Notes: generated by a model not told the origin, from the sequence alone. A stretch of DNA of 64,000 nt from Candidatus Micrarchaeia archaeon (GCA_041650395.1 JBAZLG010000002.1:63050-127049); one strand, 5' to 3'; shown: positions 1 to 51,144, counted from the first letter of the stretch. Made by a program: numbers and translations.

Positions 1-100
1 ATTTTATCTTGCCTGCGAGGGACTCGACCTGCGACTTCTTTTTCGCGATGGCCGCCCTCTCATGTTTCTGCACGTTTGTTTTGCGTTTGATTTTAGTCAT
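1..100 (-). CDS. rplP0: 50S ribosomal protein uL10 / stalk protein P0, N-terminal 33 codons (gene runs off window start)
   Basis: ATG at 100 on the minus strand reads MTKIKRKTNVQKHERAAIAKKKSQVESLAGKIK. It lies 27 nt downstream of uL1, matching the conserved archaeal L1-L10(P0)-L12 order. Too short to appear in the ORF track. Confidence 0.55.
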   Translation of the reverse strand, partial: MTKIKRKTNVQKHERAAIAKKKSQVESLAGKIK

Positions 101-126
101 AATTATCACGACACCTGGAGGATTTT

Positions 127-762
127 TCAAGCCACCTTGATTGCCTTGCCCATTGAAAGCTTCACGTAAATGGACTTAATGGACGGCTCGCTGACCTTCG
201 CCTTGACGCGCTCGTATACGGACTCGATGTTCTCGACAAGGTCCTCTGCGCTCATGTCTTCGGAGCCCACAAGGCACTGGGCTACCGGCAGGTATTTGCC
301 CTTTGAGGCAATTTTCACGCGGTTTCTTGCCTGCCTGACAGCCTCCGTGGGGCTGATGCCCACGATTGGCTTTGGCAGCTTGCCCCTGGCGCCAAGTACC
401 TGGCCCATGTTCTTGCCGACCAATACCATCATGCTTGGCTGGGCGAGGAATTCGCTCTCCTTGACAAGCTTTTTCAGCCTTGCCTGGTCTGCGACGAGTT
501 TCGGGATGCCAGGCCCGTCAATGACCTCTTCGGCGCCCGCATTTTTAGCCTCGAGAGCCACGCTCGTGTCCGCAAAGACTACGACTTTCTGGGGCTTGCC
601 CTTCCCTTTCGGGAGGACAACGTCAAGATTAAGCCTGTTTTCCGGCTTGGAAAAGTTGATTCCGCGGAAATTCATTATGAGCTCGACGCTCTGCTTGAAC
701 TTCTTCTTCCCTTTGTCCTCAAGCGCAAGGCTCACTGCCTGCGCGAACTTTGATTTGTCCAT
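127..762 (-). CDS. rpl1: 50S ribosomal protein uL1
   Basis: The 211-aa ORF has typical uL1 sequence (KFKQSVELIMNF, VLGARGKLPKP, GKYLPVAQCLVG). A GGAGGG Shine-Dalgarno-like motif lies 6 nt upstream of the ATG, and the P0 start follows downstream. Confidence 0.9.
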   Translation of the reverse strand: MDKSKFAQAVSLALEDKGKKKFKQSVELIMNFRGINFSKPENRLNLDVVLPKGKGKPQKVVVFADTSVALEAKNAGAEEVIDGPGIPKLVADQARLKKLVKESEFLAQPSMMVLVGKNMGQVLGARGKLPKPIVGISPTEAVRQARNRVKIASKGKYLPVAQCLVGSEDMSAEDLVENIESVYERVKAKVSEPSIKSIYVKLSMGKAIKVA

Positions 763-1017: not shown

Positions 1018-1335
1018 CTAAGCCTGCGTGCTCGTGAACGTCAGTGTCGCAGTGCTTGTCTGCGGCGGGCTGTCCGAGTCGATTTTCACAAGAACATAAG
1101 CCCAAATCCTGTCCGATGCGTCATTGAACGCCAGGCCGGGGCAGACAGTGATGCTTGCTGTGCCCAAGTCCTGCATGGACTGGTTTATGCCGGCGCAAGA
1201 GCCTGCCTCGCTTTCAGACCCAAACATCCGGAACAAAGGCGCGGAACCGCCTATGAAACCCGCAGCATCCTTGTCGGACGCCACTGTTATGGAGACATTG
1301 ACATTCCCCTGGTTCTCCACAAGGAAGCCAAGCTC
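1018..1335 (-). repeat. Dispersed repeat copy 1: near-identical 3' coding end shared with 5784-6101
   Basis: By eye there are only scattered substitutions between 1018-1335 and 5784-6101. A more diverged third copy lies at 44081-44400. Confidence 0.8.
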
Positions 1336-4300
1336 CCCGCCTGTGGTGTTCGAGGTCTCATTGGACATCAGGGTAATCGAGCCTGCCGCGGGCGGAGTCA
1401 CGGAAACGAAACTGAAAGTGCTGTCATTCGCGCCATTGGAAGTGTATACCGCAATCTGGTTGGTGGAAGTGATGTTTATCCCTATAGTGCCATTGTTTGT
1501 CCATGCTATTTGCGCGCCAGTGTTGTTGTCATAAATGCCATAGCCTGAAAACCCGGTGGCATTGAAGGCCAGGAGCCTGTCCGCCTGGTCCCATGAGATG
1601 CCCGTGCACCTTGGCGAAGTGCAAGGCACGCCGTTTTGCTGGATGGTTGAAAGGTCGCCTGCAACGCCGGAATAGTAATATATGTCAGGCGCGGCCTGCT
1701 TCGAGTATACCCCTGTGAGGTTCAGGGTTATAGTAGTAGAAGAATTGAATGACGGGTCGAGAGCGGAGGAATTCACAGACACGAAGCCAGAGCCTATCAC
1801 AACATTGGAGTCGTAATCCTGCGAAACCGTGTTGACGCCGTGGGTCGGAGGGAAGCGTATCCTGCCTTTCCCCGGCTTCTCAAGCGTGAGGTTTGTAACA
1901 TTCCCCAGGTCTGCCAGTGCAGTGAAATCAGTAGTGGCGCCTCCGTAATTGCTTACCACCGGATTGTATGAGAGCCTGACAGACACCATGCCTGTTGTGT
2001 CCGAATATCCGGCAATGTCGGCCGCATAAGCGCCATAGGCGTAAGTCCCGTCTGATAGGTTTGTCAGGTTTGTGTCAAACTCCCATGATGTTGAATTGAT
2101 TTTTTTCAGGTTCGAATAGTAAAGCTGCCTTACCTCTTCGGATGAAAAGGAGCGGTTGTATATCCTGACTTCGTCAATAGTGCCGTTGAAGAACCTGCCT
2201 GCTACCATTGAATCCGTCCCGATTTGCACTGGCGAGGCAGTGTCCGCCAGCGTGCCTGACACAGGGCCTGTGTTAGAAAGGGCGCCATTGACGTAAATGC
2301 TGACATTTGTCGCGTTGAGAACCGCTACCACGTGGCTCCACGTGCCTGCCGGCACTGCGGTCGATGCCTGCGTGTTGAATATGACGTTCTGTCCGGAATC
2401 CCAGCCAGCAAGAGCGGGCAGGCCCGCATTCAGTGTGAAACGCCATTCGTTTTGCGGGCTTAGGCGCTTGCCCAATATGCCGCAGGTGGTCGCGGCAGCG
2501 CATTGCGCAGTTGGCTTCACCCATGCGGACACGGTAAATTTGTTTGAATAGAACATGTCGCTTGCGTTCACGTACTGCGAATTGCCATCCAGATATAGGC
2601 CGCTGCCAAACTCGCCGGGCCCAGAAGCTGCATTGTAAAGTCCCGTGATATTGTTTCCCCTGGCGCCAGAGTCAATTCCCGCAAGTTCCCCCTTGTTGAC
2701 AATGAAGTTGTCAAAGTAGGTGGTGATAGACTTGGCATTGTTGCGGTTGAGGGTGAATATCTTGACCTGCATGTTCTGGTTGGAAGCGCCGGTCACATTG
2801 GTATATCCATAATATGTCCAGCCGCCCGTGGTGCTGTTGTAATAATAACATGAAACTATTGTGCCGACGCGCGTCATCCTCATCTTCCCAACAGGAGTTG
2901 AGGCCACTATAAGGCTTCCGAACCTGTTGGATATCTGGGAATCCCAGGAGGCATATTCCATACTCCCGGACCACCTGAAGTAATCGCATTCATATGAATA
3001 GGAAGTGCCGGATACCTGGAGCGACGCCTGGTAGCCGTCCGTAGGGGTGCCCCACGCGCTGGCGTCATAGTCCACCTGTATGTCAAAATCGCCGGAGAGC
3101 CTGTAAGTGCTCATTATCTGGCCATAACTCCACGTGGTCGCAGCGGTCGTGGTCACAAGCCTGTTGCCTGAAACTGCCGCGGTCCCATAGGTGCTCCAGC
3201 GGCTTGTGTTCAAGGACGCGGCGTTGAATGCGTCCGAATAAATGGGGCCCTCGAAACCCCACATGCCCATGAGGGAAGAATCGTACAATGAATAATTCGT
3301 GCCATTCCAGTTCCAGACGAAGTCCCTAAGCTGGGTGGACGCGTTGACAGTCACGTTGGCAAACAGGCTGTTTGACTGCAGGACAGAGCCGTTTGCGGCA
3401 TTGCCAGCGCCAAAGCCCGGGCATGCCCTGCCGCAGTCGCCAAAATAATTGCGTATGCCATCCCTGGAATTATTGTAGAGCAGAGATATTTCCGTGCCAT
3501 TCAAAGAGCGGTTGAAAATGGCGACCTCATCGATTGTGCCGTTGAACGATGAATAGCCATTGTACCCCTTGCCGATGTAGAGGGGCTTTGCGGGGAGCGC
3601 GAAGCCTGTTATTGCCGCAGTGCTTGAAGATACCAATGCGCCGTCAACATAGAAACTCCTTGAATGGCCGGGTATGTCATAGGCAAAGGCGATGTGGTGC
3701 CATTCATTGGCGCTCCAGTTCTGGGTGTTGAAGTAGACGTTCGCGCCAATGGTCGAGGAATTGACAATGTCGCAGTCTATGCCGCCCGTTCCGTAATCAG
3801 TTGGGCGGAAGACGCAGCCAAGGCCGCTTCCAGAAGCGCCCCAGAAGTTGTAGTCAAGGAAAATCTCGTGGTTGGCATAGTTGTAAGCATTCCATCTGGG
3901 CTTTATCCAGAACGAAAGCGTCCCCGCGCTGCTCAAATTGAGGCTTGGCGAGTAGCTGACATTCACAAGGCCGTTGAACACGTATGCGCCGCCTACCTTG
4001 CCCGCGGACGAGGTGAGCGACGCGCCCGATACTGCGCCATTGTTCAAGCCCATTGCGTCATTGGCATTGGAATCGAATGGCCAATATGAGACAAGGCCCG
4101 CCGGGTATTTGGATGGCGGGCTTAGAAGCACGTAATAAGTGGAGCCAAAGCCGGCATTGCCGAAACTGTCATTAGACCAGACGCGATAGGAATAGAGCCC
4201 ATAGGACAGGTTGGATTTTGCAGATGCGTTGAAGGAAGTGCCAGACAACTGCAATGTCTCATTCGAGGTCCCGTTCCATTCAAGCATTGCCGAACTGACA

Positions 4301-5736
4301 GCCTTGTTGAATGCGCCCGAAATCTGGACAGAGGTGGCTGTGATGTTTGAATTATTGGCGGGCGTTGAACCGGAATATGCGGCCTCTGCCGGGAACGTGT
4401 CCGATGCCGCAAGGAATGGGTAGACATTGAGACGCGGGTAAGAATAGCCATTGACCTGAACCCTCTTGCCGGTCTGGTTTAGCTTCTGGTAAATCTGGTC
4501 GGGGGTCAGGGACCTGCCCTGCGCCCCAAGCTCGCTTTGAACTATGGCGACAGCGGCCGAAACGAAAGGTGTCGCCTGCGAAGTTCCGCCCATGTCAAGA
4601 GTGCCGCCAAGCCTGTAAGTGGAAGTGATGATGGCGCCGGGGGCCAGTATGTCGAGGTTGGGGCCATAATTGGTGAAGCACGCCAACTGGTCGGCCTGTG
4701 GCGAGCTGTCGGTGCACGTGCCGGGGCTGGTGCTCCAGGTCTGCGAACTGTAGTTGGAAGCGTAGACAGCGCCAACTGAAAAAGCCGCTGCCTCGCACGC
4801 GGGGCTTGAAACGCCGGAAGTGAAATGGTTGTTGCCTGAAGCCACTGCCACGAAAATGCCATTGGACTTGGCTGTGTTGAGGCTTGATGAAAAGCCGGTG
4901 GAGCAGCTGGTGTTGTACTGCGCGTTGTCGGTGATGCTCATTGAAATGACGCTGATGTTGTAAGCCGCACGGTTGGAATTGCACCAGTCAATGCCTGACA
5001 AGATGCTTGAGAGTGTGCCGGAATTGGAAGAGTCGAGGACCTTGACCACGGCTATCCGCGCCCCGGGGGCGGTCCGGTTGATTATGCCTGCGATGTGGGT
5101 GCCGTGGTTGTTGTCGTCCATCGGGTCGGAGTCGGAGTTGATGAAGTCATAACCCCCTACGAACTTGGCGCACGTGCCAGCCGCAAAGGCGGCTGCGCCG
5201 GAGCACCCGCCGAAATCGCTCTGGTTGTAATTAACGCCGGTGTCAAGAAGGCAGATGGTCTTGCCGACCCCTGTGGAATTGACGCCATTGACCTGAACGG
5301 AATATGCGGGAGTGACATTTATCATAGGCCAGGCAGCGCTGTCTGCGCCATAAAACGGCCGGTCGTAGTAAATGTCCTGAACAGAAGGGTCGGAGGCGAG
5401 TTGCGAGAGCTGGGCAGAGTCGAGGCTGGCGGCAAAACCATTGAAGCTCGAATACTGCGCCTTGACGGAAGTGAGCTTTCTTGAAGAGATAAGACGGTTC
5501 TGCGCTGTGGAATAGATAGCCCTCTTTGTGGCCTGCAAGGAGTCCTTTTGCGCCTCGGACATGGAAGGGCTTGATAGGGGCGATGTGTCACTAAGGATGA
5601 TGACAACAGGGGCCCTGCCCGACTTGGATATCTCGGAGGATACCAGGGGGTCGACGTAAGAGTGCGCAATCCCAGTCAAAAGCGAAAGCGCCACGAATGC
5701 AATGAATATTGCCCTAAACTGATTTTGCTGTGCCAT
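1018..5736 (-). CDS. Secreted subtilisin-like (S8) serine protease fused to LamG-type lectin domains and a shared C-terminal surface module
   Basis: The 1572-aa ORF has a signal peptide (MAQQNQFRAIFIAFVALSLLTGIAHS) and S8 triad motifs LLDTGV, HGTHIAG and GGTSQATPFV. LamG_3-like blocks follow (LVSYWPFDSNANDA, GTIDEVAIFNRSL, GTIDEVRIYNRSF). It is rich in N-X-S/T sequons. Confidence 0.85.
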   Translation of the reverse strand: MAQQNQFRAIFIAFVALSLLTGIAHSYVDPLVSSEISKSGRAPVVIILSDTSPLSSPSMSEAQKDSLQATKRAIYSTAQNRLISSRKLTSVKAQYSSFNGFAASLDSAQLSQLASDPSVQDIYYDRPFYGADSAAWPMINVTPAYSVQVNGVNSTGVGKTICLLDTGVNYNQSDFGGCSGAAAFAAGTCAKFVGGYDFINSDSDPMDDNNHGTHIAGIINRTAPGARIAVVKVLDSSNSGTLSSILSGIDWCNSNRAAYNISVISMSITDNAQYNTSCSTGFSSSLNTAKSNGIFVAVASGNNHFTSGVSSPACEAAAFSVGAVYASNYSSQTWSTSPGTCTDSSPQADQLACFTNYGPNLDILAPGAIITSTYRLGGTLDMGGTSQATPFVSAAVAIVQSELGAQGRSLTPDQIYQKLNQTGKRVQVNGYSYPRLNVYPFLAASDTFPAEAAYSGSTPANNSNITATSVQISGAFNKAVSSAMLEWNGTSNETLQLSGTSFNASAKSNLSYGLYSYRVWSNDSFGNAGFGSTYYVLLSPPSKYPAGLVSYWPFDSNANDAMGLNNGAVSGASLTSSAGKVGGAYVFNGLVNVSYSPSLNLSSAGTLSFWIKPRWNAYNYANHEIFLDYNFWGASGSGLGCVFRPTDYGTGGIDCDIVNSSTIGANVYFNTQNWSANEWHHIAFAYDIPGHSRSFYVDGALVSSSTAAITGFALPAKPLYIGKGYNGYSSFNGTIDEVAIFNRSLNGTEISLLYNNSRDGIRNYFGDCGRACPGFGAGNAANGSVLQSNSLFANVTVNASTQLRDFVWNWNGTNYSLYDSSLMGMWGFEGPIYSDAFNAASLNTSRWSTYGTAAVSGNRLVTTTAATTWSYGQIMSTYRLSGDFDIQVDYDASAWGTPTDGYQASLQVSGTSYSYECDYFRWSGSMEYASWDSQISNRFGSLIVASTPVGKMRMTRVGTIVSCYYYNSTTGGWTYYGYTNVTGASNQNMQVKIFTLNRNNAKSITTYFDNFIVNKGELAGIDSGARGNNITGLYNAASGPGEFGSGLYLDGNSQYVNASDMFYSNKFTVSAWVKPTAQCAAATTCGILGKRLSPQNEWRFTLNAGLPALAGWDSGQNVIFNTQASTAVPAGTWSHVVAVLNATNVSIYVNGALSNTGPVSGTLADTASPVQIGTDSMVAGRFFNGTIDEVRIYNRSFSSEEVRQLYYSNLKKINSTSWEFDTNLTNLSDGTYAYGAYAADIAGYSDTTGMVSVRLSYNPVVSNYGGATTDFTALADLGNVTNLTLEKPGKGRIRFPPTHGVNTVSQDYDSNVVIGSGFVSVNSSALDPSFNSSTTITLNLTGVYSKQAAPDIYYYSGVAGDLSTIQQNGVPCTSPRCTGISWDQADRLLAFNATGFSGYGIYDNNTGAQIAWTNNGTIGINITSTNQIAVYTSNGANDSTFSFVSVTPPAAGSITLMSNETSNTTGGELGFLVENQGNVNVSITVASDKDAAGFIGGSAPLFRMFGSESEAGSCAGINQSMQDLGTASITVCPGLAFNDASDRIWAYVLVKIDSDSPPQTSTATLTFTSTQA

Positions 5737-5783
5737 AAAACCCCCGAAGTGTATGTTTGATTATCATGAATTGCCGCAGGCGC

Positions 5784-6101
5784 TCACGCCTGCGTGCTCG
5801 TGAAAGTCAGCGTCGCCGTGCTTGTCTGCGGCGGGCTGTCCGAGTCGATTTTCACAAGAACATAAGCCCAAATCCTGTCGGAAGCGTCATTGAACGCCAG
5901 GCTGGGGCAGACAGTGATGCTTGCTGTGCCCAAGTCCTGCATGGACTGGTTTATGCCCGGGCAAGAGCCTGCCTCGCTTTCAGACCCAAACATCCGGAAC
6001 AAAGGCGCGGAACCGCCTATGAAACCAGCAGCATTCTTGTCGGACGCCACTGTTATGGAGACATTGACATTGCCCTGGTTCTCAACAAGGAAGCCAGTGT
6101 C
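5784..6101 (-). repeat. Dispersed repeat copy 2 (see 1018-1335)
   Basis: Near-identical DNA to 1018-1335, offset by 4766 bp. Confidence 0.8.
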
Positions 6102-8954
6102 GCCTCCCGTGACATTGCCGGATTCGTTTGACGTCAGGACAATTGAACCGGCAGCAGGCGGAGTAACTGGAATGAAAGAGAATGCGCTGTTATTTGATGA
6201 GCTTGAGGTATAGACAGCGATCTGGTTGGTTGACGTGATGTTTATCCCGATTGTGCCGCTCGTATTAGTAGGCGAGCCGCCGGCGCCAGTGAAATTGCCC
6301 GAGCCGTTCACGCCGTAATCCGAGAAACCAGTGACATTGAATGTCAAGATTCCTGTCCCCTGGTTCCATGAGACGCCAGTGCACCTGGGGGCGGAGCAGA
6401 CCTGCCCGTTCTGGAGAATCGTTGCAAGGCTTGAGGCGAATGCCTCGTAATAATATATCGTGGGCGCAGTTGCGCTCGAATAAACGCCTGTCAGGTTCAT
6501 TGTAAGCATTGCCGTTGAGTTAAAGCTGGAATCCAGGGCAGAGGAGTTGACTGAAATGAACCCATTGCCTATGATTACTTGCGTGTCATAGTCAGCGCCA
6601 GCCGCATTGACGGAATGGGTGGACGGGAACTTGATTTTTCCTGCGCCTGCCTTCTCAAGCGTCAGGTTCGTGACATTCGTTATGTCCGCCACTGCGGCGA
6701 AATTGGTCGTCTCGCCGCTATATGTTGAGACGACCGGGTTGTATGCGAGTGTCACGGAGCGCAAGCCGGTCGAATCTGTGTAGCCAGACGTGTCGGTTGA
6801 ATATGCCGCATAAGCATAAGTGCCGTCAGTGAGATTCGTCTGGTTTGTGACAAATTCCCATGCAGTGGAATTAAGCTTTCTTAGGTTTGAGAGGTAGAGC
6901 TGTTTCACCTCTGCCGCCGATAAGGAGCGGTTGTAAATCCTGACCTCGTCTATGGTGCCGTTGTAAGAATACACTCCAGATGCATAGCCAATTTGAAGGT
7001 TCGAGGCAATGTTTGGCATAGAGGATGTTTCAGCTTTCGGCGTGCCTATAGCCGAACCATCCAGGAAAAGCCTAAGATGCGTGCCATTTGCCACTGCGGC
7101 CAGATGGTGCCACTGCCCGTCATTAAGAGCAAGGCCAGCGACTTCAAGCGGGCTCCAAACGCCGTTTGCAAAAGCCCACCTGACCACTCCGGAGTTTGCC
7201 GGCATGTAGAGGAGGAGACCCATATTGTTAGCATTGTCCCATTTGGATACGAAGACGTTTTGAGAATTAGTGTTGGGCTTTGCCCAAACAGAGACGGTTG
7301 CCTGTGACGAACCGTCAAGGACCGAAACGTCCCCCATGTCAGAGTAGCCGGAAGAGAGCTGGATGCCATTGCCGTACTTGCCGGGCTGGCTGGAATACGC
7401 GCTTGACAGGGTGCCGTTGTTGCCGTACTTGCTCGAGTCTGAAATGGACTGGCCGCTGTTGACCTGGAAATTGTCAAAATCTACAGTCAGGGCTGGATAC
7501 GAGCCCCAGTTCCAAGCGCCAAGCCAGAGGTAATACGATGCCGTGGGGCTGATTGAACACGAGCCTGACTGTTTCCATGCGCCGCTGTCGTAATAATAGG
7601 AAGATATAGTAGAGCCTGAACTCACCAGCCTGAACTTGCCCGAAGTCAGGGAGGTCGCGTTGTTGCTGACCTGCGTGCCGGAGCAATACATCTGGTAATA
7701 ATCCGTGCCTGCCAGGATGTTCTTTTTTATTTCATAATAATTGGAAGCATTGGCGTAATTGTAGAGGCGCAGGGCATAATCGCTCTCGGTCACGTCAGAA
7801 GTTGAGACCTCTGTGAAATCCACCTGCATGTCAAAGCTGCCTGAAAAAGACATTGTGCCATAAGAGTTGAGCGCCCTGGCAGTTGAACTGCTTCCTGACG
7901 GGATTGAATACCTTGCCTTTCCCGCATTGGCTGTGACGCCATTGTTGTTGTTCCAGTGCGCGGAATTTATGCCTGAATCGAAATTGTCGCTGTAGTTCAT
8001 GTCCTCGAAGCTCCACATGCCCACAAGGGAGGAGTCGTAGAATGAATAGTTGGTGCTGTTCCAGTTGAAAGTGAAATTTGCCAGGCTTAAGGGGGGGTTG
8101 AGAGTGATATTGGCAAATACGGACGTTGACGCCAGTGTCGAGCCATTGGCTGGCGTGCCAGTGCCAAAGGACGGGCAGGAGGAAACGCAGGCCCCGAAAT
8201 AGTTTCTCGCGCCGTCTTTGGAATTGTTGTAGAATTGCGCTATCTCCGAAGCGGAAAGTGTCCTGTTGAAAATGGCGACCTCGTCTATCGAGCCGTTGAA
8301 ATCCACCATGCCCACGCTTGGGCTGTCAAAGCCTGTCCAGCCCTTGCCTATGAGCAGGTCGTTAGTGGTGTTGGTAAAAGTGACATTGCCGCTCTTGAAT
8401 GTCGCAAAAGGGGTTACAAACGCGCCGTCCACTGCTATTTGCGTCCCCGTGCCGTTCCAGACAAGCGCAAGAAGGTGCCAGGCATTGTTGTTGACTGAAG
8501 AAGGCGAGTCGGCAAGGTTCCATATCGCATAGCCGCTGTTGGCCCCGGCCCTCACAAGGCCCGAAGACCCAAGCACGTCGATGTACCACCCGTAATATTC
8601 CGCATTCGCGGGGTTGAAGAATTTCTGGATTATCGTAGAGCGGTTGGTATTGTTGCCCGCCTTTGCCCATGCAAGAATTGAAAAATTGCCGGGCCCGAAA
8701 TTCAGGGAAAGGCTGCTTGGGACAAGTATGTAATTGTTTGAGCCGCTAAAAACGTAAGTGCCGCCGACCCTGCCGCCGGAGGCGGCGAGAGTGGCGCCCA
8801 CAACAGTGCCGTTGTTCATCCCAAGCGCGTCATTCGCATTGGAATCAAAGGGCCAATAAGAAACAAGCCCGGATGGATATGCTGCCCATGAAACTGAAAA
8901 AAGCAAGATAACTAGTATTGGAAATGCCTGCCTCGTCCCCGAACAAATGCCCAT
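5784..8954 (-). CDS. Secreted LamG-domain surface protein, paralog of 1018-5736 without the protease domain
   Basis: The ORF track extends to 9182. I prefer the ATG at 8954 (MGICSGTRQAFPILVILLFSVSWAAYP, a signal peptide) followed by LVSYWPFDSNANDA. LamG_3 ends are IDEVAIFNRTL and IDEVRIYNRSL, and the C-terminal module is shared. Confidence 0.8.
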   Translation of the reverse strand: MGICSGTRQAFPILVILLFSVSWAAYPSGLVSYWPFDSNANDALGMNNGTVVGATLAASGGRVGGTYVFSGSNNYILVPSSLSLNFGPGNFSILAWAKAGNNTNRSTIIQKFFNPANAEYYGWYIDVLGSSGLVRAGANSGYAIWNLADSPSSVNNNAWHLLALVWNGTGTQIAVDGAFVTPFATFKSGNVTFTNTTNDLLIGKGWTGFDSPSVGMVDFNGSIDEVAIFNRTLSASEIAQFYNNSKDGARNYFGACVSSCPSFGTGTPANGSTLASTSVFANITLNPPLSLANFTFNWNSTNYSFYDSSLVGMWSFEDMNYSDNFDSGINSAHWNNNNGVTANAGKARYSIPSGSSSTARALNSYGTMSFSGSFDMQVDFTEVSTSDVTESDYALRLYNYANASNYYEIKKNILAGTDYYQMYCSGTQVSNNATSLTSGKFRLVSSGSTISSYYYDSGAWKQSGSCSISPTASYYLWLGAWNWGSYPALTVDFDNFQVNSGQSISDSSKYGNNGTLSSAYSSQPGKYGNGIQLSSGYSDMGDVSVLDGSSQATVSVWAKPNTNSQNVFVSKWDNANNMGLLLYMPANSGVVRWAFANGVWSPLEVAGLALNDGQWHHLAAVANGTHLRLFLDGSAIGTPKAETSSMPNIASNLQIGYASGVYSYNGTIDEVRIYNRSLSAAEVKQLYLSNLRKLNSTAWEFVTNQTNLTDGTYAYAAYSTDTSGYTDSTGLRSVTLAYNPVVSTYSGETTNFAAVADITNVTNLTLEKAGAGKIKFPSTHSVNAAGADYDTQVIIGNGFISVNSSALDSSFNSTAMLTMNLTGVYSSATAPTIYYYEAFASSLATILQNGQVCSAPRCTGVSWNQGTGILTFNVTGFSDYGVNGSGNFTGAGGSPTNTSGTIGINITSTNQIAVYTSSSSNNSAFSFIPVTPPAAGSIVLTSNESGNVTGGDTGFLVENQGNVNVSITVASDKNAAGFIGGSAPLFRMFGSESEAGSCPGINQSMQDLGTASITVCPSLAFNDASDRIWAYVLVKIDSDSPPQTSTATLTFTSTQA

Positions 8955-9100
8955 ACCATATAATATGATAAGGGGATTAATAAGAATTGCGCCATTATAC
9001 CCCGAAAGCCCAAAAGCACATGGAGCGGGGAAAGGCGAGCGGGAAAAAGGCTGGAAAAATAAGGAATGCGGGCAAAATATTGAAAAAGCCAAAGAAAAGG

Positions 9101-9129
9101 AAAGGAAAAAACAGGAAAAAAAAGGGGGA
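9101..9129 (-). terminator. Oligo-T termination signal downstream of ppsA
   Basis: The minus strand reads a T8 run starting about 7 nt after the ppsA stop (plus-strand A-run 9116-9123). Further T-rich tracts lie downstream. Confidence 0.45.
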
Positions 9130-11577
9130 TTAGTCCGTGTGGACCATCCTGCCATGCTGGAGGCCGTCGGCAATCTTTGCAAGCCTCTTTAACATGACCT
9201 TTTTCTCGGCGGACGCCACTATCTTCTTGGTGGACTCCACGGCGTCCGGGTTTACCGATACGGATGTTATGCCGAACTCGATGAGCCTCTCCGTGAAGTC
9301 AGGGTAGACGGACGGGCCCTGGCCGCATATGGAGCACGTAACGCCATTGGCATTGCACGACTTTATCACTGTCTCGATTGCCTTGAGGACCGCATGGTTG
9401 CGCTCGTCGAAGCCTTCCGCAAGCGTTGAATTGTCCCTGTCAATGCCGAGGATGAGCTGCGTGAGGTCGTTCGAGCCAATGGACACGCCGTCGATCCCTT
9501 CCTTGCAGAACTCGTCGATGAGGAAGACTGTAGAGGGCACTTCTACCATTATCCAGAGCTTGAAGTCCCTGGTCCTGTGTATCTGGACTTCCTTTAGCAT
9601 GTCCTTTATCGCCCTGATTTCGCCAATCCTCCTCACGAAGGGTATCATCAGGTGGAGGTTTTTCAGCCCGAACTCCTCGCGCACCTTCTTCATGGCCAGA
9701 AGCTCCATCTTGAACACGTCAGGCTCGGAGATGTAGCGGGCGCAGCCCCTGTACCCCATCATGGGGTTTGCCTCCTCCGGCTCGTATTTCTCGCCGCCTT
9801 TGAGGTTCCTGTACTCGTTCGTCTTGAAGTCAGTGGCGCGGTAGACGACCTGCCTCGGGTAGAACGCCTGCGCGAACGTGCGCAGCTTGTCTGCAAGCTT
9901 GTCGATGTATTCCTGCTGGCGCCCCTCCTCTATTATCTTTTTCGGGTGTTCGCCGATGTCCGCTATCATGAATTCCGCGCGAAGCAGGCCAATGCCGTCG
10001 CATGGGAGCTTTGCCACCTTTTCAGCCAGGTCGACCTCGGCGAGGTTCACGTATACCTTTGTGCCCGTGACAGGAGCCTCGGCAGCGACAGCGACCACTG
10101 TCCCCGCCTGCGCCCCGCCCGCCGACGCGGCGGACGCCTGCGCCACCTCGTCTTTGGACTTGAGGTCGGCTACGTTGCCGTCGTAGATTATGCCCCGCGT
10201 GGAGTCCACTGTGACGAACATCCCGTTCTTGAGAAGGTCTGTGGCGCCTTTGGCGCCGACAATGCAGGGTATGCCCATCTCGCGGCTCACGATGGCTGCG
10301 TGGCATGTCCTGCCGCCCGTGTTGGTGACAATGGCTGCGGCCTTTTTCATGGCAGGCACGAAGTCAGGGGTGGTCATGTCGGTTACAAGTATCTCGCCTT
10401 TCTCCATCATGCCTATGTCCTTTGGCGTCGGGATGTACTTGACCTTGCCCTTGCCCACGCCCGGGGACGCACCAAGCCCTTTCAGGATAATCTTCGCCTC
10501 TTCCATTGCCACTGCATCACCACCGATAGTATTAGATTGCGCCATTGCCGCTGCCGGGGCTGCCTCCTGCTCGGCCGCCGGATGTTTCTTAAGCGTAGTA
10601 ACAGGCCTGCTCTGGACTATGTAGAGCTTGCCATTTGCAAAAGCCCATTCCATGTCCTGGGGCTTGCCGTAATGCTCCTCGATCTTCTTGCCGACCTTTG
10701 CCAGTTCGACAATCTCCTGGTCGGATAGCTTCTGCCTGCCCTGCATTTCCTCCTTTATGCGCGCGCGGACGTTCTTCTCGTTTATCTTGACTATCATGAC
10801 GTCCTGCTTGAACACGTCCTTCCTCACTATGGACATGTCGGTCTTGGACACAATGTAATTGTCGGGCGTGACCTCGCCTGAAACCACAAGCTCGCCAAGG
10901 CCGTATGCCGCCTCTATGGATATGTGGTCGTAGTTCTCCTCCACTGGGTCGACAGAGAACATGACGCCAGCCTTTTCCGACTGTATCATTTCCTGCACAA
11001 CGGCCGCGAGGCCAACCTTGAGGTGGTCGAACTTGTTCTCCGTCCTGTAATATATGGAGCGCGGCTCGAAAAGCGACGCCCAGCATTCCTTCACTGCCTG
11101 GACCGTGTTGTCAGGGCTTTTGATGTTGAGATAAGTTGACTGCTGGCCGGCAAACGACGCCTCGGGCAGGTCCTCCGCTGTGGCGGACGAGCGCACGGCG
11201 ACGTATGGCTCGTTGCCTGGGGAGAGCTGTTTGTAGGCCGTCTTTATCTCCTCCTTCATTTCCGCCGGGATTTCGCCAGCGAGCATCCGCGCCTTTACGT
11301 GGTCCGACGCCTTGTTGAGAGCGTCGCTGTTTGAAGTGTCAAGCCCGTCCGTGACGTCCTTTATGACCTTGTCAAGGCCGTTGGCCCTGACGAATTCGAA
11401 ATACGCGTTGGCGGTCACTATGAAGCCTGGCGGGATAGGGAAGCCCGCCTTTGTCATCTCGCCGAGGTTCGCGCCCTTGCCGCCGGCCTCTGCAAGGTTG
11501 TGCTTGTCAATCTCGGAAAACCATTTTACAAATCTCACAAGTATCACCTTTTTTTTGCGTTCAAGCCGCGTTATCAT
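9130..11577 (-). CDS. ppsA: Phosphoenolpyruvate synthase (pyruvate, water dikinase)
   Basis: The 815-aa ORF has the N-terminus VKWFSEIDKHNLAEAGGKGANLGEM, the phosphohistidine motif GGRTCHAAIVSREMGIP and a C-terminal PEP-utilising domain. The start may instead be the GTG at 11538, which is preceded by GGTGAT. Confidence 0.9.
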   Translation of the reverse strand: MITRLERKKKVILVRFVKWFSEIDKHNLAEAGGKGANLGEMTKAGFPIPPGFIVTANAYFEFVRANGLDKVIKDVTDGLDTSNSDALNKASDHVKARMLAGEIPAEMKEEIKTAYKQLSPGNEPYVAVRSSATAEDLPEASFAGQQSTYLNIKSPDNTVQAVKECWASLFEPRSIYYRTENKFDHLKVGLAAVVQEMIQSEKAGVMFSVDPVEENYDHISIEAAYGLGELVVSGEVTPDNYIVSKTDMSIVRKDVFKQDVMIVKINEKNVRARIKEEMQGRQKLSDQEIVELAKVGKKIEEHYGKPQDMEWAFANGKLYIVQSRPVTTLKKHPAAEQEAAPAAAMAQSNTIGGDAVAMEEAKIILKGLGASPGVGKGKVKYIPTPKDIGMMEKGEILVTDMTTPDFVPAMKKAAAIVTNTGGRTCHAAIVSREMGIPCIVGAKGATDLLKNGMFVTVDSTRGIIYDGNVADLKSKDEVAQASAASAGGAQAGTVVAVAAEAPVTGTKVYVNLAEVDLAEKVAKLPCDGIGLLRAEFMIADIGEHPKKIIEEGRQQEYIDKLADKLRTFAQAFYPRQVVYRATDFKTNEYRNLKGGEKYEPEEANPMMGYRGCARYISEPDVFKMELLAMKKVREEFGLKNLHLMIPFVRRIGEIRAIKDMLKEVQIHRTRDFKLWIMVEVPSTVFLIDEFCKEGIDGVSIGSNDLTQLILGIDRDNSTLAEGFDERNHAVLKAIETVIKSCNANGVTCSICGQGPSVYPDFTERLIEFGITSVSVNPDAVESTKKIVASAEKKVMLKRLAKIADGLQHGRMVHTD

Positions 11578-12580: not shown

Positions 12581-12730
12581 AGAGGGGGCTTTGCCCCCCT
12601 CTACCCCCCCGTATTTATCATTAAGAAGAGGGGGCTTTGCCCCCCTCTACCCCCCCGTATTTATCATTAAGAAGAGGGGGCTTTGCCCCCCTCTACCCCC
12701 CATATTTATCATTAGTAAGAGGGGGCTTTG
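12581..12730. repeat. 46-bp tandem direct repeat, 3 full units plus a partial one, each with a GC hairpin and an AT-rich TATA-like tail
   Basis: Units lie at 12581-12626, 12627-12672 and 12673-12717, with a partial unit at 12718-12730. The unit is AGAGGGGGCTTTGCCCCCCTCTACCCCCCCGTATTTATCATTAAGA, in which AGAGGGGGC and GCCCCCCTCT form a stem. It sits in the divergent intergenic region. Confidence 0.95.
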
Positions 12731-12865
12731 AAGCTGTCCAAATCCACCTAAATTGCGCGTGTTTGCCACCAACCCAACGCCATCAGTCGCGCTTAATAAC
12801 ATGTTATGCCGAATTACTTTAAGGCCACGCGCCAGAAAAAAAGAGCGGTTTGAAACGGTGTAGTC

Positions 12866-13393
12866 ATGAATTGCAAGTCCGGCTTGTTCATAGGCAGATT
12901 CCAGCCTGTCCATAATGGCCACATGGAAGCCATAAAGTTCGCGTGCTCGAAGTGCGAAAAGCTCATAGTGGTGGTGGGCAGCTCGCAAAAGTCCTACGAG
13001 CTTGACGACCCGTTCACCGTGGGCGAGAGGATAGAGATGGTCAGCGACGCCATAGCAGGCGCCGGGCTTTTGGCAAAGTGCAAGGTCCTCTCTGTCCCTG
13101 ACATACAAAACAACGCGTTGTGGGTGGCACACGTGGAATCCCTTGTCCCGCCCTTTGACTCCGTGTTCTCAAACAATTCCCTTGTAAAGACTCTCTTTTC
13201 CGATGCAGGCTACAAGGTGTTCCCGGTCCCCATGGCTAACAGGAAGGAATATGAGGGGACGAAGATTAGGAAGCTCATGCTTGAAGGCAGGGGCATATCA
13301 AAATTAATTCCGCCGCAGGCGCACGCGGTCATTGAGAGGATAGGGGCCACAAAGAGGATGCGCTCGATAGCCGACCTTGGCGAATCAGGATAG
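12866..13393 (+). CDS. nadM: Nicotinamide-nucleotide adenylyltransferase, archaeal type
   Basis: The 175-aa ORF has GLFIGRFQPVHNGH (the HxGH nucleotidyltransferase motif) and VVVGSSQKSYELDDPFTVGERIEM, typical of archaeal NMNAT. Confidence 0.9.
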   Translation: MNCKSGLFIGRFQPVHNGHMEAIKFACSKCEKLIVVVGSSQKSYELDDPFTVGERIEMVSDAIAGAGLLAKCKVLSVPDIQNNALWVAHVESLVPPFDSVFSNNSLVKTLFSDAGYKVFPVPMANRKEYEGTKIRKLMLEGRGISKLIPPQAHAVIERIGATKRMRSIADLGESG

Positions 13394-13892: not shown

Positions 13893-15437
13893 TCAGCCCG
13901 AAAAATTCATGCTCGAATTGTCGGAAGGCGGAATGCCCGCCCCGGGGGCGACTCCAGTGGAGTTCAGCGGCGGCATTGCGGACGGCCCGCTCTCGTTTTG
14001 CATGGCATCAGGCGCGGTGGCATTGCCCGACACATTAGCTGGAATCATGGGCGCATTGTAATCAGTCTGGTTTGAGCCTGCCACAACAGTCCCGTTCATT
14101 GCAGGGGCAGTCTGGTTTGAGGCAGCCATCCTGGCGCTTGATATGTCCACTATTATCCCCGCGACCTCATACGCTGTGATTGTAACCGGCACCATGTCGC
14201 CTGGCGCAAGCTCGCCATCATAGGCGATTGATATGTTTTGTAAGTTGAGCATTGTGGAATACGTGGCATTGCCCGGCCCTGTGACAGTGGCAGGCACGCC
14301 AAGCAGGTAAGTCTGCGAGGCATAGGGCTTTGACTTGACCCCTTTCGAGCCGAGGTAGGCGGAGAGGGCCGTTATTGCCTGCGCCGGGTCAGCCCCTGTC
14401 TCGAACGAGACTGTGGAGGAGGGGAAGCCGGGGCCGTAGGGCGTCAGTTCCCCGACTGCAAGAGTGATGTTGGTGAAATCGTCGCTGACGCCGGCATATG
14501 CCTGCTGGAGGGCGGTTATGTAAGATGGCTTTGCCGCGCTCAAGGCATTGTACTGGTCCTGCGTGAGCCCGGGGTTGAATTCAATGTATGATTTCTTCGA
14601 ATATGATACATTTGACACATTGAACCCGGCCATTGCGTCAATCACGCCCTGCCTTGTCACAAGCGACCTGTCCTGCCACAGTATCGAAGCAGAGACAATG
14701 TCCGACTTCTTTGCGACCACGGGCAGGCTCGTGTCAAGCGTAAGCTGCGTGGGTATGACTGAAATAGTGCCCCATCCAGTCAGGGAATATTCGTTGGTGG
14801 CGCTTCCCTGGACCAGGTCGCCCCTGGCATTGAACGAAACGAGTATCCGCGCGCCCCTGTGTATGGATGGCAGGAGCTGGTATGAGATTGAGGCGGGTAT
14901 CAGGCTGTAGTGCGTGCCATTGTCGTCCACGAGGTCGAGGTTGCCATTGAACTGGATTTGAGCCGGCGCGTAGACAGACACGTTTATGCCGCCGAACTCG
15001 GAGGCGGCCTTTTGCACGTCTGATTCTGACGCGAGGTTGACAAGCATTGTGGAATTGTCCGCATTGACCGCGTAAGTGGCAATGCCCTGGGATATCAGCT
15101 GGTCCTTGATTTCCTGCGCCTTCGCCATGTCAGCGCCTGACACGTACAGCACCGGGTCGTAGGACACCACAGTGCCGTTTGCAGTGATTACGCCAAAGAC
15201 TGTCTGGGGCACGTTGGCAGGCGCCGTGGTGCCGGAATTTCCGGAAGAGTTGCCGTTTGAGAGCCCGCCAAGATAGCCAAGAGAGACCATCTCCAAAACG
15301 AACGCTATGACCATGACAAAAACGAATATCTTTATCGCATTGTCCTTGAGCATTTTCTTGAAATCCGCCCCATCAAATACCTTTAATAGCTTGTCCATGT
15401 CCATAATTAACACCAAAGAATAGTTATCATACTCCAT
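13893..15437 (-). CDS. Hypothetical membrane-anchored extracellular protein
   Basis: The 514-aa ORF has one N-terminal TM helix (IKIFVFVMVIAFVLEMVSLGYLGG), many N-X-S/T sequons and an S/P/N-rich tail. No family recognised. Confidence 0.65.
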   Translation of the reverse strand: MEYDNYSLVLIMDMDKLLKVFDGADFKKMLKDNAIKIFVFVMVIAFVLEMVSLGYLGGLSNGNSSGNSGTTAPANVPQTVFGVITANGTVVSYDPVLYVSGADMAKAQEIKDQLISQGIATYAVNADNSTMLVNLASESDVQKAASEFGGINVSVYAPAQIQFNGNLDLVDDNGTHYSLIPASISYQLLPSIHRGARILVSFNARGDLVQGSATNEYSLTGWGTISVIPTQLTLDTSLPVVAKKSDIVSASILWQDRSLVTRQGVIDAMAGFNVSNVSYSKKSYIEFNPGLTQDQYNALSAAKPSYITALQQAYAGVSDDFTNITLAVGELTPYGPGFPSSTVSFETGADPAQAITALSAYLGSKGVKSKPYASQTYLLGVPATVTGPGNATYSTMLNLQNISIAYDGELAPGDMVPVTITAYEVAGIIVDISSARMAASNQTAPAMNGTVVAGSNQTDYNAPMIPANVSGNATAPDAMQNESGPSAMPPLNSTGVAPGAGIPPSDNSSMNFSG

Positions 15438-40749: not shown

Positions 40750-43155
40750 ATGCCGCAGGGGTGTTGGAACTTGAAGGCGCAGGCATCGCTTGAACAGCTC
40801 GTGGTCATCGGCGCGGCGCTGGCATTCATCGCAATCGCATTCTACATAGCAGCAAGCATGTCGGCGGAGAGCATCAAGCTCGCGCAGGCGCAGGATTCGG
40901 TCGAGCGCCTCGCCTCCGCGGCGGATTACGTTTATTCCATAGGGCCCAACACGAAGGAATACGTGACAGTTTTCCTCCCTGCCGGGATAATCTCGACCAA
41001 CACAACGGGGAAGAGGGTCTTGATCAGCCTTTCGACCACCGCGGGCAGCACGGACGTTTACGAGAACACCAGGGCAGACCTGACAGGCACGCTTGAGCCA
41101 AAGCCAGGCAGGCAGAAAGTGCTTGTCGAATACCTGCCGACAGGGAAGGTAAGGCTTGGCGAGGCGGGGCTGACATGTTACCCGAGCTACATAGTTAAGC
41201 AGCTCAATGCAGGCGACACCGCGCAGGACGCCCTCGCATTCTCAAACAACGCGGAATTCAACGTGACCGGGATAAGCTTCAATTACACGGGCTCGGCAAA
41301 GGATTTCACCACCCTCGGCTTAGTGCCAGGCTCGCTTCTGGCAGGCGAATCCGCCAATTCCACGCTCTCATACGACATACCGGCCCAGACGCAAAGCGGC
41401 GTGTACGGCGGGGTCATATCGCTCGATTCCGCGAACGGCGGCTCGTGCACGATACAGGTGTCCCTGAAAGTCAATGGCGTGCCCACGTGCGCCGGCCTTT
41501 GCGCAAACGGCGGCTATGCCACAGGCACGTGCAGGGCGTCCCCGTCCCAATGCGTTGCAAATGGCGAGGACTATTCAAGCCCCGGCGACATCGGATGCGC
41601 TGGCGGCTCGCCAAGCTGCTGCTGCGGGCCGACCCAGGACTTTTTCGGGCCGATTGTGACAAGCATATACCACACTCCGGAAAACGCCAGCACCGCGGAC
41701 AATGTCAGCATATATGCCACTTGCAACGACTCGGAGACCGGCGGGCTGTACATCAGCTCTTCCATGCTGCAGGTAGACGGCGGCGCGTGGATAAGCATGA
41801 ACGCGACGGACGGGACGTTCTCGGACTCGGTGATCGAAAGCTCCAGCGCGTTTGTCGGGATGCTTGCGGCCGGGCAGCACATCGCCATAGTCAAGTGCGC
41901 CGACACTGCGAACAACACCGGGCCACTCGGATATTACTATTTCAACGTGTCCCTCGCGGACGTATACGGGCCGATAATAACGAAACTCAACCATACAGAA
42001 AGCGCGCCCACGACCCTTGTCAACCTGACCGAGGACGCGACGGCAACGGACTATTTCACTGGAAACAACGACATAACCGCTTGCTACATGAAGCTTAGAA
42101 GCCCAGGGGGGGTAGAGACTGCTTGGCTTCCAATCCCCGCGTCGGACGGCGCCTATGACTCGCCAACGGAGGACTTCTCGCACGATTTCGGGCAGCTCTC
42201 CTCCGGCATACATACCATAAGCGCCTACTGCACGGACTCCAAGGGGAACAACGGCGGCCAGTTCAACGACACCTTCGGCGTCGTGACCGTGGACATGATG
42301 CTGATAATAGACAGGTCGGGCTCAATGGCATGGCCCATAACAAACTACACGGACGGCAGCCTGGATTCGACAAAGAACACCGACCTGACCCTCGTCAAGA
42401 GCCTCGTAGTCGGGACCAAAAACGGCGACCTTGCCAACGTGTCCATAGAAACCAGGACAGACACCTCCGGCTGCAGCGCGCTCTACGAGGCGCGCATTGG
42501 CTCGAACGTGATAGCAAGCGGGAACAGGACGTCGACTTCCTATGGCTACAACTATTTCTATAATATCAACATTTCCGCGTACAGCCCGCCATACACTGTG
42601 GATTTCTACCTTGCAAAGTATCCCAATGGCGGCTGCACGGCATACATGCGCGGCGTCGGTGTGACGCAGATGCCCGACAAGATGCAAAGCGCCCAGGACG
42701 CGGCGGATTATTTCGTTGACATTGTGAGCAACACGTCAAAGGTCGGGCTGGTGTCCTACTCGTCAAGCGGGACAACTGACATGCAGCTTGCGGACATGAG
42801 TTCCATCGCGAACAAGAATTCCCTGAAAAGCGCGATAAACGCGCTTTACGCCAGCGGCGGCACGTGCATAGAATGCGGGCTTGACAACGCGGTCACGGAA
42901 CTGATATCTTCAAGGGGGAGAAGCGACTCCGTAAGGGTGGCAATACTTCTCACGGACGGCGTGAGCAATTACGGCAATTCTGTCGACGGCGCGGTCTACG
43001 CCAGGAACAACAACGTTACAGTATATACCATAGGGCTTGGAAACGACGTGGACGACACGGAACTCACAAACATAGCGCTTCTGACAAACGGCAAGTATTA
43101 CAAGGCCCCCGACGCGGCGACGCTTTTGCAGATATACAGCAACATAGGGCAGTAG
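40750..43155 (+). CDS. Pilin-signal protein with a Cys-rich region and a C-terminal von Willebrand factor A domain (putative pilus adhesin)
   Basis: The N-terminus NLKAQASLEQLVVIGAALAFIAIAFYIAAS is class III signal-like. The vWA MIDAS motif is MLIIDRSGSM, with LLTDGVSNYG and VYTIGLGNDVD. A Cys cluster reads CAGLCANGG...GSPSCCCG. Confidence 0.8.
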   Translation: MPQGCWNLKAQASLEQLVVIGAALAFIAIAFYIAASMSAESIKLAQAQDSVERLASAADYVYSIGPNTKEYVTVFLPAGIISTNTTGKRVLISLSTTAGSTDVYENTRADLTGTLEPKPGRQKVLVEYLPTGKVRLGEAGLTCYPSYIVKQLNAGDTAQDALAFSNNAEFNVTGISFNYTGSAKDFTTLGLVPGSLLAGESANSTLSYDIPAQTQSGVYGGVISLDSANGGSCTIQVSLKVNGVPTCAGLCANGGYATGTCRASPSQCVANGEDYSSPGDIGCAGGSPSCCCGPTQDFFGPIVTSIYHTPENASTADNVSIYATCNDSETGGLYISSSMLQVDGGAWISMNATDGTFSDSVIESSSAFVGMLAAGQHIAIVKCADTANNTGPLGYYYFNVSLADVYGPIITKLNHTESAPTTLVNLTEDATATDYFTGNNDITACYMKLRSPGGVETAWLPIPASDGAYDSPTEDFSHDFGQLSSGIHTISAYCTDSKGNNGGQFNDTFGVVTVDMMLIIDRSGSMAWPITNYTDGSLDSTKNTDLTLVKSLVVGTKNGDLANVSIETRTDTSGCSALYEARIGSNVIASGNRTSTSYGYNYFYNINISAYSPPYTVDFYLAKYPNGGCTAYMRGVGVTQMPDKMQSAQDAADYFVDIVSNTSKVGLVSYSSSGTTDMQLADMSSIANKNSLKSAINALYASGGTCIECGLDNAVTELISSRGRSDSVRVAILLTDGVSNYGNSVDGAVYARNNNVTVYTIGLGNDVDDTELTNIALLTNGKYYKAPDAATLLQIYSNIGQ

Positions 43156-51053: not shown

Positions 51054-51144
51054 ATCCACACAACCTTTTTGCAAAACCATGCCTTTTCCGGGGCGCGCCT
51101 TGTCCCCAACAACCTTTTTTCATTGCACGAGTATATAACACTTA

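Follow-up and report, generated by a model that had tools for sequence, protein, structure and literature searches.

Three large secreted proteins encoded in a 64,000-nucleotide stretch of a Candidatus Micrarchaeia archaeon genome (GCA_041650395.1, JBAZLG010000002.1:63050-127049; the whole stretch is referred to as the window) carry different N-terminal cargo on a common C-terminal tail. The three open reading frames (ORFs A, B, and C; Table 1) lie on the minus strand, and their last 327 amino acids (aa) are 65-74% identical. The tail consists of two independently occurring domains, here called N-sub and C-sub, with a linker of ~20 aa rich in Gly, Ser, and Asn between them that is disordered in the AlphaFold2 (AF2) models of both domains. 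The reading preferred here, to which we would give an even chance as a whole, is that the tail is a two-part surface-display module, in which a self-cleaving joint (N-sub) is followed by a pilin domain (C-sub) that would join a surface fibre. Each half is of a known kind, namely the ZU5/GPS/Nup98 superfamily and the MAIN domains for the one, and archaeal donor-strand pili for the other. The novelty lies in the coupling of a proposed self-cleaving joint with a pilin domain of the donor-strand type, in the expansion of this fusion in Micrarchaeota, and in how large the unannotated families of DPANN archaea are; no description of the N-sub/C-sub fusion or of its Micrarchaeota expansion was found in the literature.

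A tail of two separable domains on shuffled cargo

The original prediction for this DNA had proposed that A, B, and C share one unassigned C-terminal module of ~310 aa despite different N-terminal modules. The N-terminal modules are as claimed, since Pfam finds Inhibitor_I9, Peptidase_S8, and two LamG domains in A, two LamG domains in B, and Gly_rich_2 in C. A and B are 49% identical across 1073 aa (BLASTP), so that B is essentially A minus the protease part, and C resembles A and B only in the last 327 aa (A-C 65%, B-C 73%, E 1e-130 to 1e-157, BLASTP). Exactly three copies of the tail are present in the whole window (tblastn). Over the tail, A and B are 74% identical (tblastn), and the B-C value equals this although B and C share no cargo, which bears out domain shuffling rather than simple whole-gene paralogy.

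The expectation that further proteins carry the tail was also confirmed. When the 318-aa tail was used as a query, the matches comprised Micrarchaeota proteins with the full tail on unrelated cargos (S8, LamG, Gly-rich, DUF2341, beta-helix, IPT/TIG, and repeat arrays), as well as proteins that match one half. FG-GAP and S8 plus Gly-rich cargos also occur among the relatives. It is the unity of the module that had to be given up, as the two domains have separate distributions: in P0140 a beta-helix is inserted between N-sub and C-sub, so that the two are separable, and P0097 has two N-sub copies ahead of C-sub. The module is borne by at least A, B, C, P0001, and P0005 in the window genome, with P0001 (WC506_01800; Candidatus Micrarchaeia archaeon at NCBI) encoded on the 1,104,519-bp contig on which A, B, and C are all on record, and at least 14 loci of the Micrarchaeota metagenome-assembled genome (MAG) WY5.bin13 carry the tail.

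All three window proteins have ordinary N-terminal Sec-type signal peptides and terminate right after ...TLTFTSTQA; the C-sub of ORF A begins with GTIGINITSTNQIAVYTS and ends with TATLTFTSTQA, followed by the stop codon. As had been noted from the start, the proteins are rich in N-x-S/T sequons (54, 40, and 38 in A, B, and C), and no transmembrane segment, sorting tail, or sortase-type motif follows the shared end; the PGF-/PEF-CTERM archaeosortase signature (motif, transmembrane helix, and basic tail) is absent from the three C-termini. The further claim that the module belongs to no named family holds at the curated thresholds, in that the last ~320 aa matched no family above threshold when the complete proteins were scanned with Pfam and NCBIfam. 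Below these thresholds it does not hold, as N-sub recurrently matches PF04096, and structure prediction gives C-sub a FimA-type fold, with no significant structural match for N-sub.

Within the tail shared by the tandem genes A and B, the last ~240 nucleotides (nt) (~1018-1260 in A, ~5784-6025 in B) are 95-98% identical at the DNA level, and the remainder 51-73%. This pattern suggests recent gene conversion limited to the C-terminal half of the pilin-like domain.

N-sub and its similarity to Nup98-type autopeptidases

A profile built from 15 N-sub sequences was searched against a representative library clustered at 50% and found the ~150-aa domain in 1,347 cluster representatives at E <= 1e-3 (576 at E <= 1e-10). 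The hosts are DPANN archaea and some proteins with bacterial pilin N-termini; host proteins are up to 7,147 aa long, with a maximum of seven copies in one protein, and 62 N-sub-containing proteins carry 51 Pfam families, e.g., LamG, Fib_succ_major, GLUG, FG-GAP, beta-helix, and propellers. The usual position of N-sub is just before an anchor, at a median distance of 162 aa between its end and the protein end. Among the best 140 representatives, 58 end in PEF-CTERM (...PEFS-hydrophobic-RKK), 18 in C-sub, and several others in a transmembrane helix with a basic tail, so that N-sub normally adjoins a recognised archaeal anchor; A, B, and C, unlike the PEF-CTERM proteins, have C-sub in its place. 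In other DPANN proteins, N-sub is followed by a ~110-aa domain and then a PEF-CTERM-type tail.

This ~110-aa domain of non-Micrarchaeota DPANN is conserved, contains Cys (...FTAEYINSTDG...YNVTCS...), and has no Pfam match; P0098 has the unit of N-sub and ~110-aa domain twice. A further arrangement is seen in P0198, P0203, and P0218 (890-1081 aa), where a bacterial type IV pilin N-terminus (KGFTLIELL) precedes N-sub at aa ~145-295 and LamG-type cargo lies downstream; here the joint again couples a filament subunit and cargo, in reversed order.

Across 176 N-sub copies, a short motif retains its Phe in 169 and its Ser/Thr in 168, with the triplets HFT in 79, HFS in 52 (HF[ST] 131 in total), and GFS in 28. 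The AF2 model of N-sub (ORF B copy; predicted local distance difference test score, pLDDT, 90.1) is a beta-sandwich, in which T-G-F-S forms the turn between the last two strands, 133-138 (ILTFNV) and 143-146 (DYGV). The cleavage sites of GAIN, MAIN, and Nup98 are described as having this same placement, just ahead of the last strand, and the corresponding Phe-Ser bonds of A, B, and C are given as predicted scissile bonds in Table 1. Copies of the GFS subgroup have an N-x-S/T sequon (NVT, NAT, or NVS) immediately before G-F-S, e.g., at nt ~6327-6338 in B, and HFS-type relatives have A/P-H at this position; it might be speculated that a glycan beside the scissile bond modulates cleavage.

PF04096 (Nup98-96 autopeptidase S59) is the only recurrent Pfam match of N-sub, found in 10 of the 15 members, with matches that span profile positions 20-148 of 148 and a best E of 6.9e-6; seven of 62 full-length N-sub proteins match it at E <= 0.01. 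When the N-sub alignment was compared by hhalign with human Nup98 733-894 (a sequence confirmed as 100% identical to PDB 7f60_C), a probability of 87.5 and an E of 3.6e-6 over 115-128 columns were obtained. The score of 40.8 compares with 11.3 +/- 2.4 (maximum 21.5) in 100 shuffles and thus lies about 12 standard deviations above them, and the alignment sets Nup98 H879-F880-S881-K-Y-G against the N-sub consensus H-F-S-G-Y-A. Further points of likeness to the Nup98-Nup96 domain are the cleavage HF|S of Nup98, which falls on the HF[ST] of N-sub, the downstream strand, which is SKYGL in Nup98, where it stays docked after cleavage, vs. SDYGV in N-sub, and the order of secondary-structure elements, which appears by eye to correspond between the hhalign alignment and the AF2 strands. 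In contrast to the Nup98-Nup96 domain, N-sub is prokaryotic, predicted to be extracellular, N-glycosylated, and disulfide-containing, and its window copies read GFS.

The ZU5, GPS, and Nup96/98 domains form one superfamily, which is also represented in large surface proteins of bacteria (Zhang et al., 2012, PMC3482391). MAIN domains self-cleave at HF|S with His as general base, the fragments remain bound to each other, and the proteins are ordered as signal peptide, cargo, MAIN, and anchor (Brogan and Rudner, May 2026 preprint, bioRxiv 10.64898/2026.05.12.724683); this preprint contains no mention of Nup98 or DPANN. The N-sub proteins have the same order, with adhesion or enzyme cargo ahead of a beta-sandwich and a surface anchor behind it, the same H-F-S/T motif in the turn before the last strand, and a similar cargo repertoire of lectins, Ig-like domains, and hydrolases, and their fragments would likewise be expected to remain associated. 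They differ from MAIN proteins in that the sequence similarity of N-sub points to Nup98 (PF04096) and not to GPS or GAIN (no GPS, GAIN, or ZU5 Pfam match was found at E <= 10), and in their anchors, which are PEF-CTERM or a pilin-like domain where MAIN proteins use sortase or SLH.

C-sub as a family of stand-alone secreted proteins

A profile search with C-sub (~157 aa) yielded 71 homologues, nearly all of them stand-alone secreted proteins of 185-230 aa, and the C-sub-only proteins found by the tail search (183-212 aa) have their own signal peptide. Few members carry a source name, and these are Micrarchaeota, Parvarchaeota, and Pacearchaeota; C-sub loci also occur in Woesearchaeota, Nanoarchaeota, and MAGs labelled Methanosarcinales. 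C-sub is always found at the protein end, a position that would fit pilins whose last strand lines the groove. It has no recurrent Pfam or NCBIfam match and no PDB sequence match in the profile search, and no membership in the Fimbrial, DUF1102, TasA (PF12389), or Taf families was detected by sequence.

The AF2 model of C-sub (ORF B copy, 64-sequence alignment) has a pLDDT of 89.2 and is predicted to adopt an Ig-like pilin fold. A Foldseek search of 350,542 PDB chains returned seven significant matches, all of them FimA, the type 1 pilus subunit (E 5e-5 to 4e-4, probability 1.0); lower ranks contain CS20, PapE, Pyrobaculum AbpA (7ueg), and CsuA/B among unrelated low-probability matches, and the majority of the pilin-class matches are donor-strand pilins. 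Conservation within C-sub is highest in the first strand and in the last one, which is obligatorily terminal, and a strand GT[IV]G[IV]NITSTNQIAVY, with pLDDT below that of the core, is conserved at the mature N-terminus of the stand-alone subunits. One member, P0010 (L007:1579-2286, 233 aa), has ~60 aa of the adenylosuccinate synthase N-terminus (PF00709) fused in frame to a full C-sub and may be either a chimera from the assembly or the remnant of a recombination event.

Gene context of C-sub outside the window

Related loci were sought with the C-sub profile, and several have the composition of a pilus-type cluster, with several pilin-like paralogues, a putative tip protein, and an anchor or accessory protein (L001, L017, and L018-L022). 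In the Micrarchaeota locus L001, tandem stand-alone C-sub copies of 185 and 184 aa precede a 415-aa protein that has a signal peptide as well as a transmembrane helix at its C-terminus. L017 encodes an additional 361-aa protein, a candidate membrane anchor in which a divergent C-sub and an Ig-like domain are joined to a C-terminal transmembrane helix. The recurrent order in L018-L022 is a large cargo protein, one to three stand-alone subunits, and a ~380-400-aa protein with a signal peptide and a transmembrane helix; the exception is L019, where the ~395-aa protein lies ahead of the stand-alone subunits. A ~145-aa transmembrane protein comes next in L018, L020, and L021. At their C-terminus, the large cargo proteins of L018-L022 have a C-sub-like domain (hmmsearch 2e-11 to 1e-8; hhalign probability ~95), and the one of L019 carries a LamG domain that matches NCBIfam TafC. 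The ~390-aa accessory proteins have weak CARDB or WxLIP_HBD-like matches only, and the ~145-aa proteins, for which only a weak PapD-like match was obtained (E 0.026), are not called chaperones.

The arrangement of the tail recalls the chaperone-usher pili, where in FimH/PapG an N-terminal cargo is followed by a pilin domain that obligately ends the protein; FimA is the best structural match of C-sub, and the small stand-alone paralogues would be the shaft subunits. Unlike chaperone-usher pili, however, the DPANN system has no outer membrane, usher, recognisable PapD chaperone, or sequence similarity to them, the window proteins retain a conserved N-terminal strand that is absent from FimH, a putative self-cleaving joint is inserted, and many cargo paralogues occur per genome.

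A further comparison is with the archaeal donor-strand filaments. In tafi (PMC11821415), TafA and TafE are FimA-like and match the same PDB entries as C-sub, the tip subunit TafC has LamG (a LamG of ORF A is also matched by NCBIfam TafC), and the 361-aa protein of L017 can be compared with the pilin-like membrane anchor TafF. In the AbpA-AbpB bundling pili (PMC9245690), abpA followed by the 410-aa abpB mirrors the pilin gene and ~400-aa signal-peptide protein of the C-sub loci, and the AbpA structure is among the C-sub Foldseek matches given above. On the other hand, C-sub shows no sequence match to the DUF1102, TasA, or Taf models of the archaeal and TasA-TapA filaments, the window lineage is DPANN, and no autoproteolytic joint appears in the descriptions of these filaments (PMC11821415, PMC9245690). 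With regard to tafi, the window proteins are exported by Sec and not Tat, and their cargo is N-terminal rather than, as in TafC, C-terminal of the pilin domain.

Proposed mechanism and alternatives

In the proposed mechanism, A, B, and C would be exported by Sec. Their C-sub, as an Ig-like, donor-strand-complemented pilin domain of the same family as P0013 and the subunits of the pilus-like operons, would be incorporated by strand exchange into a fibre of stand-alone subunits or would cap it, the fibre would be attached to the membrane via a pilin-like subunit bearing a C-terminal transmembrane helix, and the protease, lectin, or glycine-rich cargo would be displayed outward on the fibre. N-sub would cut itself at F|S by an N-O acyl shift in the turn that precedes the last strand, where the Phe would be buried and Ser/Thr would act as the nucleophile. 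After cleavage, the short strand S-D/G-Y-G-V/I would remain hydrogen-bonded in the N-sub sheet, and the cargo, held only non-covalently, would hence be sheddable. The predicted C-terminal fragment of 176-179 aa is essentially a stand-alone subunit plus an N-terminal extension. Of this scheme, the domain limits, the distributions of the two halves, the conserved motifs, the predicted folds, and the operon context are observed, and the homology of N-sub to Nup98-type autopeptidases, the cleavage of the GFS variants, polymerisation by strand exchange, and the place of the subunits in the fibre are inferred.

Several results weigh against this reading. On the side of N-sub, the PF04096 scores (20-24 bits) are under the curated cut-off of 28.4; with a larger N-sub alignment the hhalign probability for Nup98 drops to 60, and only the first half is aligned at default settings. 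The N-sub profile searched against PDB sequences returned chance matches only (NetB, PDZ) and not Nup98. For the N-sub model, a Foldseek search of the PDB had no significant match (best E 0.056, template modelling (TM) score <= 0.32), and the top 50 contained only weak Ig V-domain matches and no Nup98, GAIN, or ZU5 entry, so that identity of fold with Nup98 (1KO6/2Q5X) or GAIN (4DLQ) is not claimed. Owing to the missing Foldseek match, the weaker large alignment, and the PDB profile miss, homology of N-sub with Nup98-type autopeptidases is rated as likely and not as established. Moreover, the triplet in A, B, and C is GFS, with Gly at the motif His position. For C-sub, the TM scores to FimA are only moderate (0.42-0.48), at no detectable sequence similarity; the 14 or more cargo paralogues of WY5.bin13 are far above the number of typical tip adhesins; and the window contains no assembly genes, nor is a stand-alone C-sub gene or a homologue of the L017 accessory or anchor genes present in it. 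A stand-alone C-sub subunit, P0013, is encoded by the same MAG on its other contig.

The alternative that survives best, although we consider it unlikely, retains the architecture but leaves the joint uncut in A, B, and C: N-sub would be a rigid stalk and the cargo covalently held, as in a FimH-like two-domain tip subunit. It draws on the distribution of the motif, with GFS in all cargo-bearing Micrarchaeota N-sub copies and HFS kept in the short, cargo-less P0005, P0006, and P0009, on the role of His as general base in MAIN/GAIN chemistry, and on the cargo proteins of other DPANN operons, which have a C-sub-like end and no N-sub. However, all three window proteins retain the Phe and Ser that are reported as essential, along with a conserved post-cleavage strand. 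According to PMC3210808, Nup98 H862A/Q cleave almost normally, with Phe and Ser essential (citing Hodel, 2002), and CARD8/NLRP1 are cleaved at SF|S; by analogy with these cases, cleavage of the GFS copies is plausible.

A quite improbable reading takes C-sub as a non-polymerising Ig-like anchor whose target is the S-layer, a membrane partner, or surface glycans, and the stand-alone homologues as ordinary surface-associated proteins. The moderate TM scores to FimA would allow for this, the number of cargo paralogues per genome suits a general anchoring domain, and an S-layer is reported for Micrarchaeota (bioRxiv 10.1101/2021.04.28.441871). Yet all seven significant Foldseek matches, and most of the pilin-class ones, are donor-strand pilins, two to three small paralogues stand in tandem beside a membrane-anchored pilin-like protein and downstream of cargo proteins with the same C-terminal domain, and conservation is highest in the first and the terminal last strand; these points favour a pilin domain.

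The original prediction had likened the constant tail on variable cargo to the C-terminal domain of the bacterial type IX secretion system (T9SS) and to S-layer-anchoring domains. The unrelated cargos are real, and surface retention is the best reading of the tail; the T9SS analogy, by contrast, does not hold. The T9SS C-terminal domain is a terminal sorting domain of ~80-100 aa that is removed by PorU in Bacteroidota. A tail recognised by a secretion machine and then removed would agree with the constant C-terminus, the variable cargo, and the absence of a transmembrane segment or sortase-type motif, but it is very improbable here: A, B, and C have ordinary Sec signal peptides, the host is archaeal with no Por-type genes nearby, the tail is a 327-aa, two-domain structure rather than a ~80-100-aa beta-sandwich, and the cleaved-signal analogy fails because C-sub is itself a free-standing family of secreted proteins with their own signal peptides.

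It is hardly credible that the stand-alone homologues belong to the type IV pilins and carry class III signal peptides, and that the tail links cargo to type IV pili, as P0070, named pseudopilin PulG by the Joint Genome Institute, the hydrophobic N-terminal segment of non-Micrarchaeota C-sub members, and the occurrence of N-sub behind true bacterial type IV pilin N-termini might suggest: this candidate was rejected on signal-peptide evidence (a permissive class III motif in only 6 of 61 C-sub members, classic AxA Sec signals in Micrarchaeota, and TG[FYA]A just ahead of the first strand in 39 of 61), and, in addition, the fold search gives chaperone-usher and bundling pilins but no archaeal type IV pilins, and no PilB or PilC genes lie in the operons examined.

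Features of the window and neighbouring genes

The coordinates of the three proteins and their domains are listed in Table 1. For ORF B, the mechanical call (5784-9182) starts at TTG 9182 and overlaps the end of the upstream gene at 9130-11577, which we take, from a reading of its translation, to encode phosphoenolpyruvate synthase; the ATG at 8954 gives ORF B a proper signal peptide and agrees with the 1056-aa P0237. A, B, and C have housekeeping genes as neighbours, including those for ribosomal protein L1 and TIM.

Table 1. Features of the three tail-bearing proteins and other genes of the window, with nucleotide positions counted from the first letter of the window.
Feature	Residues (aa)	Nucleotides	Strand	Length, evidence, or remark
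ORF A		1018-5736	minus	1572 aa; identical to database protein P0105; order: signal peptide, Inhibitor_I9, Peptidase_S8, LamG/TafC-like, LamG, N-sub, linker, C-sub
Inhibitor_I9 in ORF A	73-127			Pfam
Peptidase_S8 in ORF A	158-429	4450-5265	minus	Pfam
LamG/TafC-like in ORF A	~577-760			Pfam/NCBIfam
Second LamG in ORF A	1050-1202	2131-2589	minus	Pfam
N-sub of ORF A	1257-1413	1498-1968	minus	hmmsearch with N-sub profile, E 5e-64
Predicted scissile bond of ORF A	F1396|S1397	1546-1551	minus	NATGF|SGYG
C-sub of ORF A	1416-1572	1021-1491	minus	hmmsearch with C-sub profile, E 1e-83
ORF B		5784-8954	minus	1056 aa; identical to database protein P0237; order: signal peptide, two LamG, N-sub, linker, C-sub
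LamG of ORF B, best stretch	536-684	6903-7349	minus	Pfam
N-sub of ORF B	738-892	6279-6743	minus	
Predicted scissile bond of ORF B	F877|S878	6321-6326	minus	NVTGF|SDYG
C-sub of ORF B	900-1056	5787-6257	minus	copy used for AF2 model
ORF C		44081-47743	minus	1220 aa; order: signal peptide, Gly_rich_2, more Gly-rich/beta-helix-like sequence, N-sub, linker, C-sub
Gly_rich_2 in ORF C	52-297	46853-47590	minus	Pfam
N-sub of ORF C	902-1056	44576-45040	minus	
Predicted scissile bond of ORF C	F1041|S1042	44618-44623	minus	NVSGF|SDYG
C-sub of ORF C	1064-1220	44084-44554	minus	
Other gene		12647-13132	minus	161 aa; no Pfam match at E <= 0.01
Other gene		13893-15437	minus	514 aa; no Pfam match at E <= 0.01
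Other gene		40750-43155	plus	801 aa; VWA domain at C-terminus
Other gene		48579-50135	plus	518 aa; no Pfam match at E <= 0.01
Other gene		50238-51080	minus	280 aa; no Pfam match at E <= 0.01

Implications

The searches define two large families that lack a curated model, N-sub with its 1,347 representatives at 50% clustering and C-sub with ~70 clusters. In N-sub there is a prokaryotic family whose sequence is specifically similar to that of the Nup98 autopeptidase, which bears on the origin of this nuclear-pore domain, and the two-part reading of the tail, if true, would carry the MAIN/GAIN principle over to DPANN as well as to proteins that have a bacterial type IV pilin N-terminus. A more far-reaching scenario, which is put forward only tentatively, is that Micrarchaeota build chaperone-free donor-strand fibres with enzymes and lectins on many of their subunits, that these cargos are docked only non-covalently via a Nup98-type self-cleaved strand, and that they are releasable by force or by a signal, for interaction with the host; N-sub would then be the closest prokaryotic relative of the Nup98-Nup96 domain.

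DPANN archaea need contact with host cells, and how they retain and deploy their surface proteins is poorly known. If the preferred reading is true, a pilin-type tail would explain the retention of at least five proteins in the window genome and at least 14 in a related genome, and proteases and lectins could be shed on demand through the self-cleaving joint.

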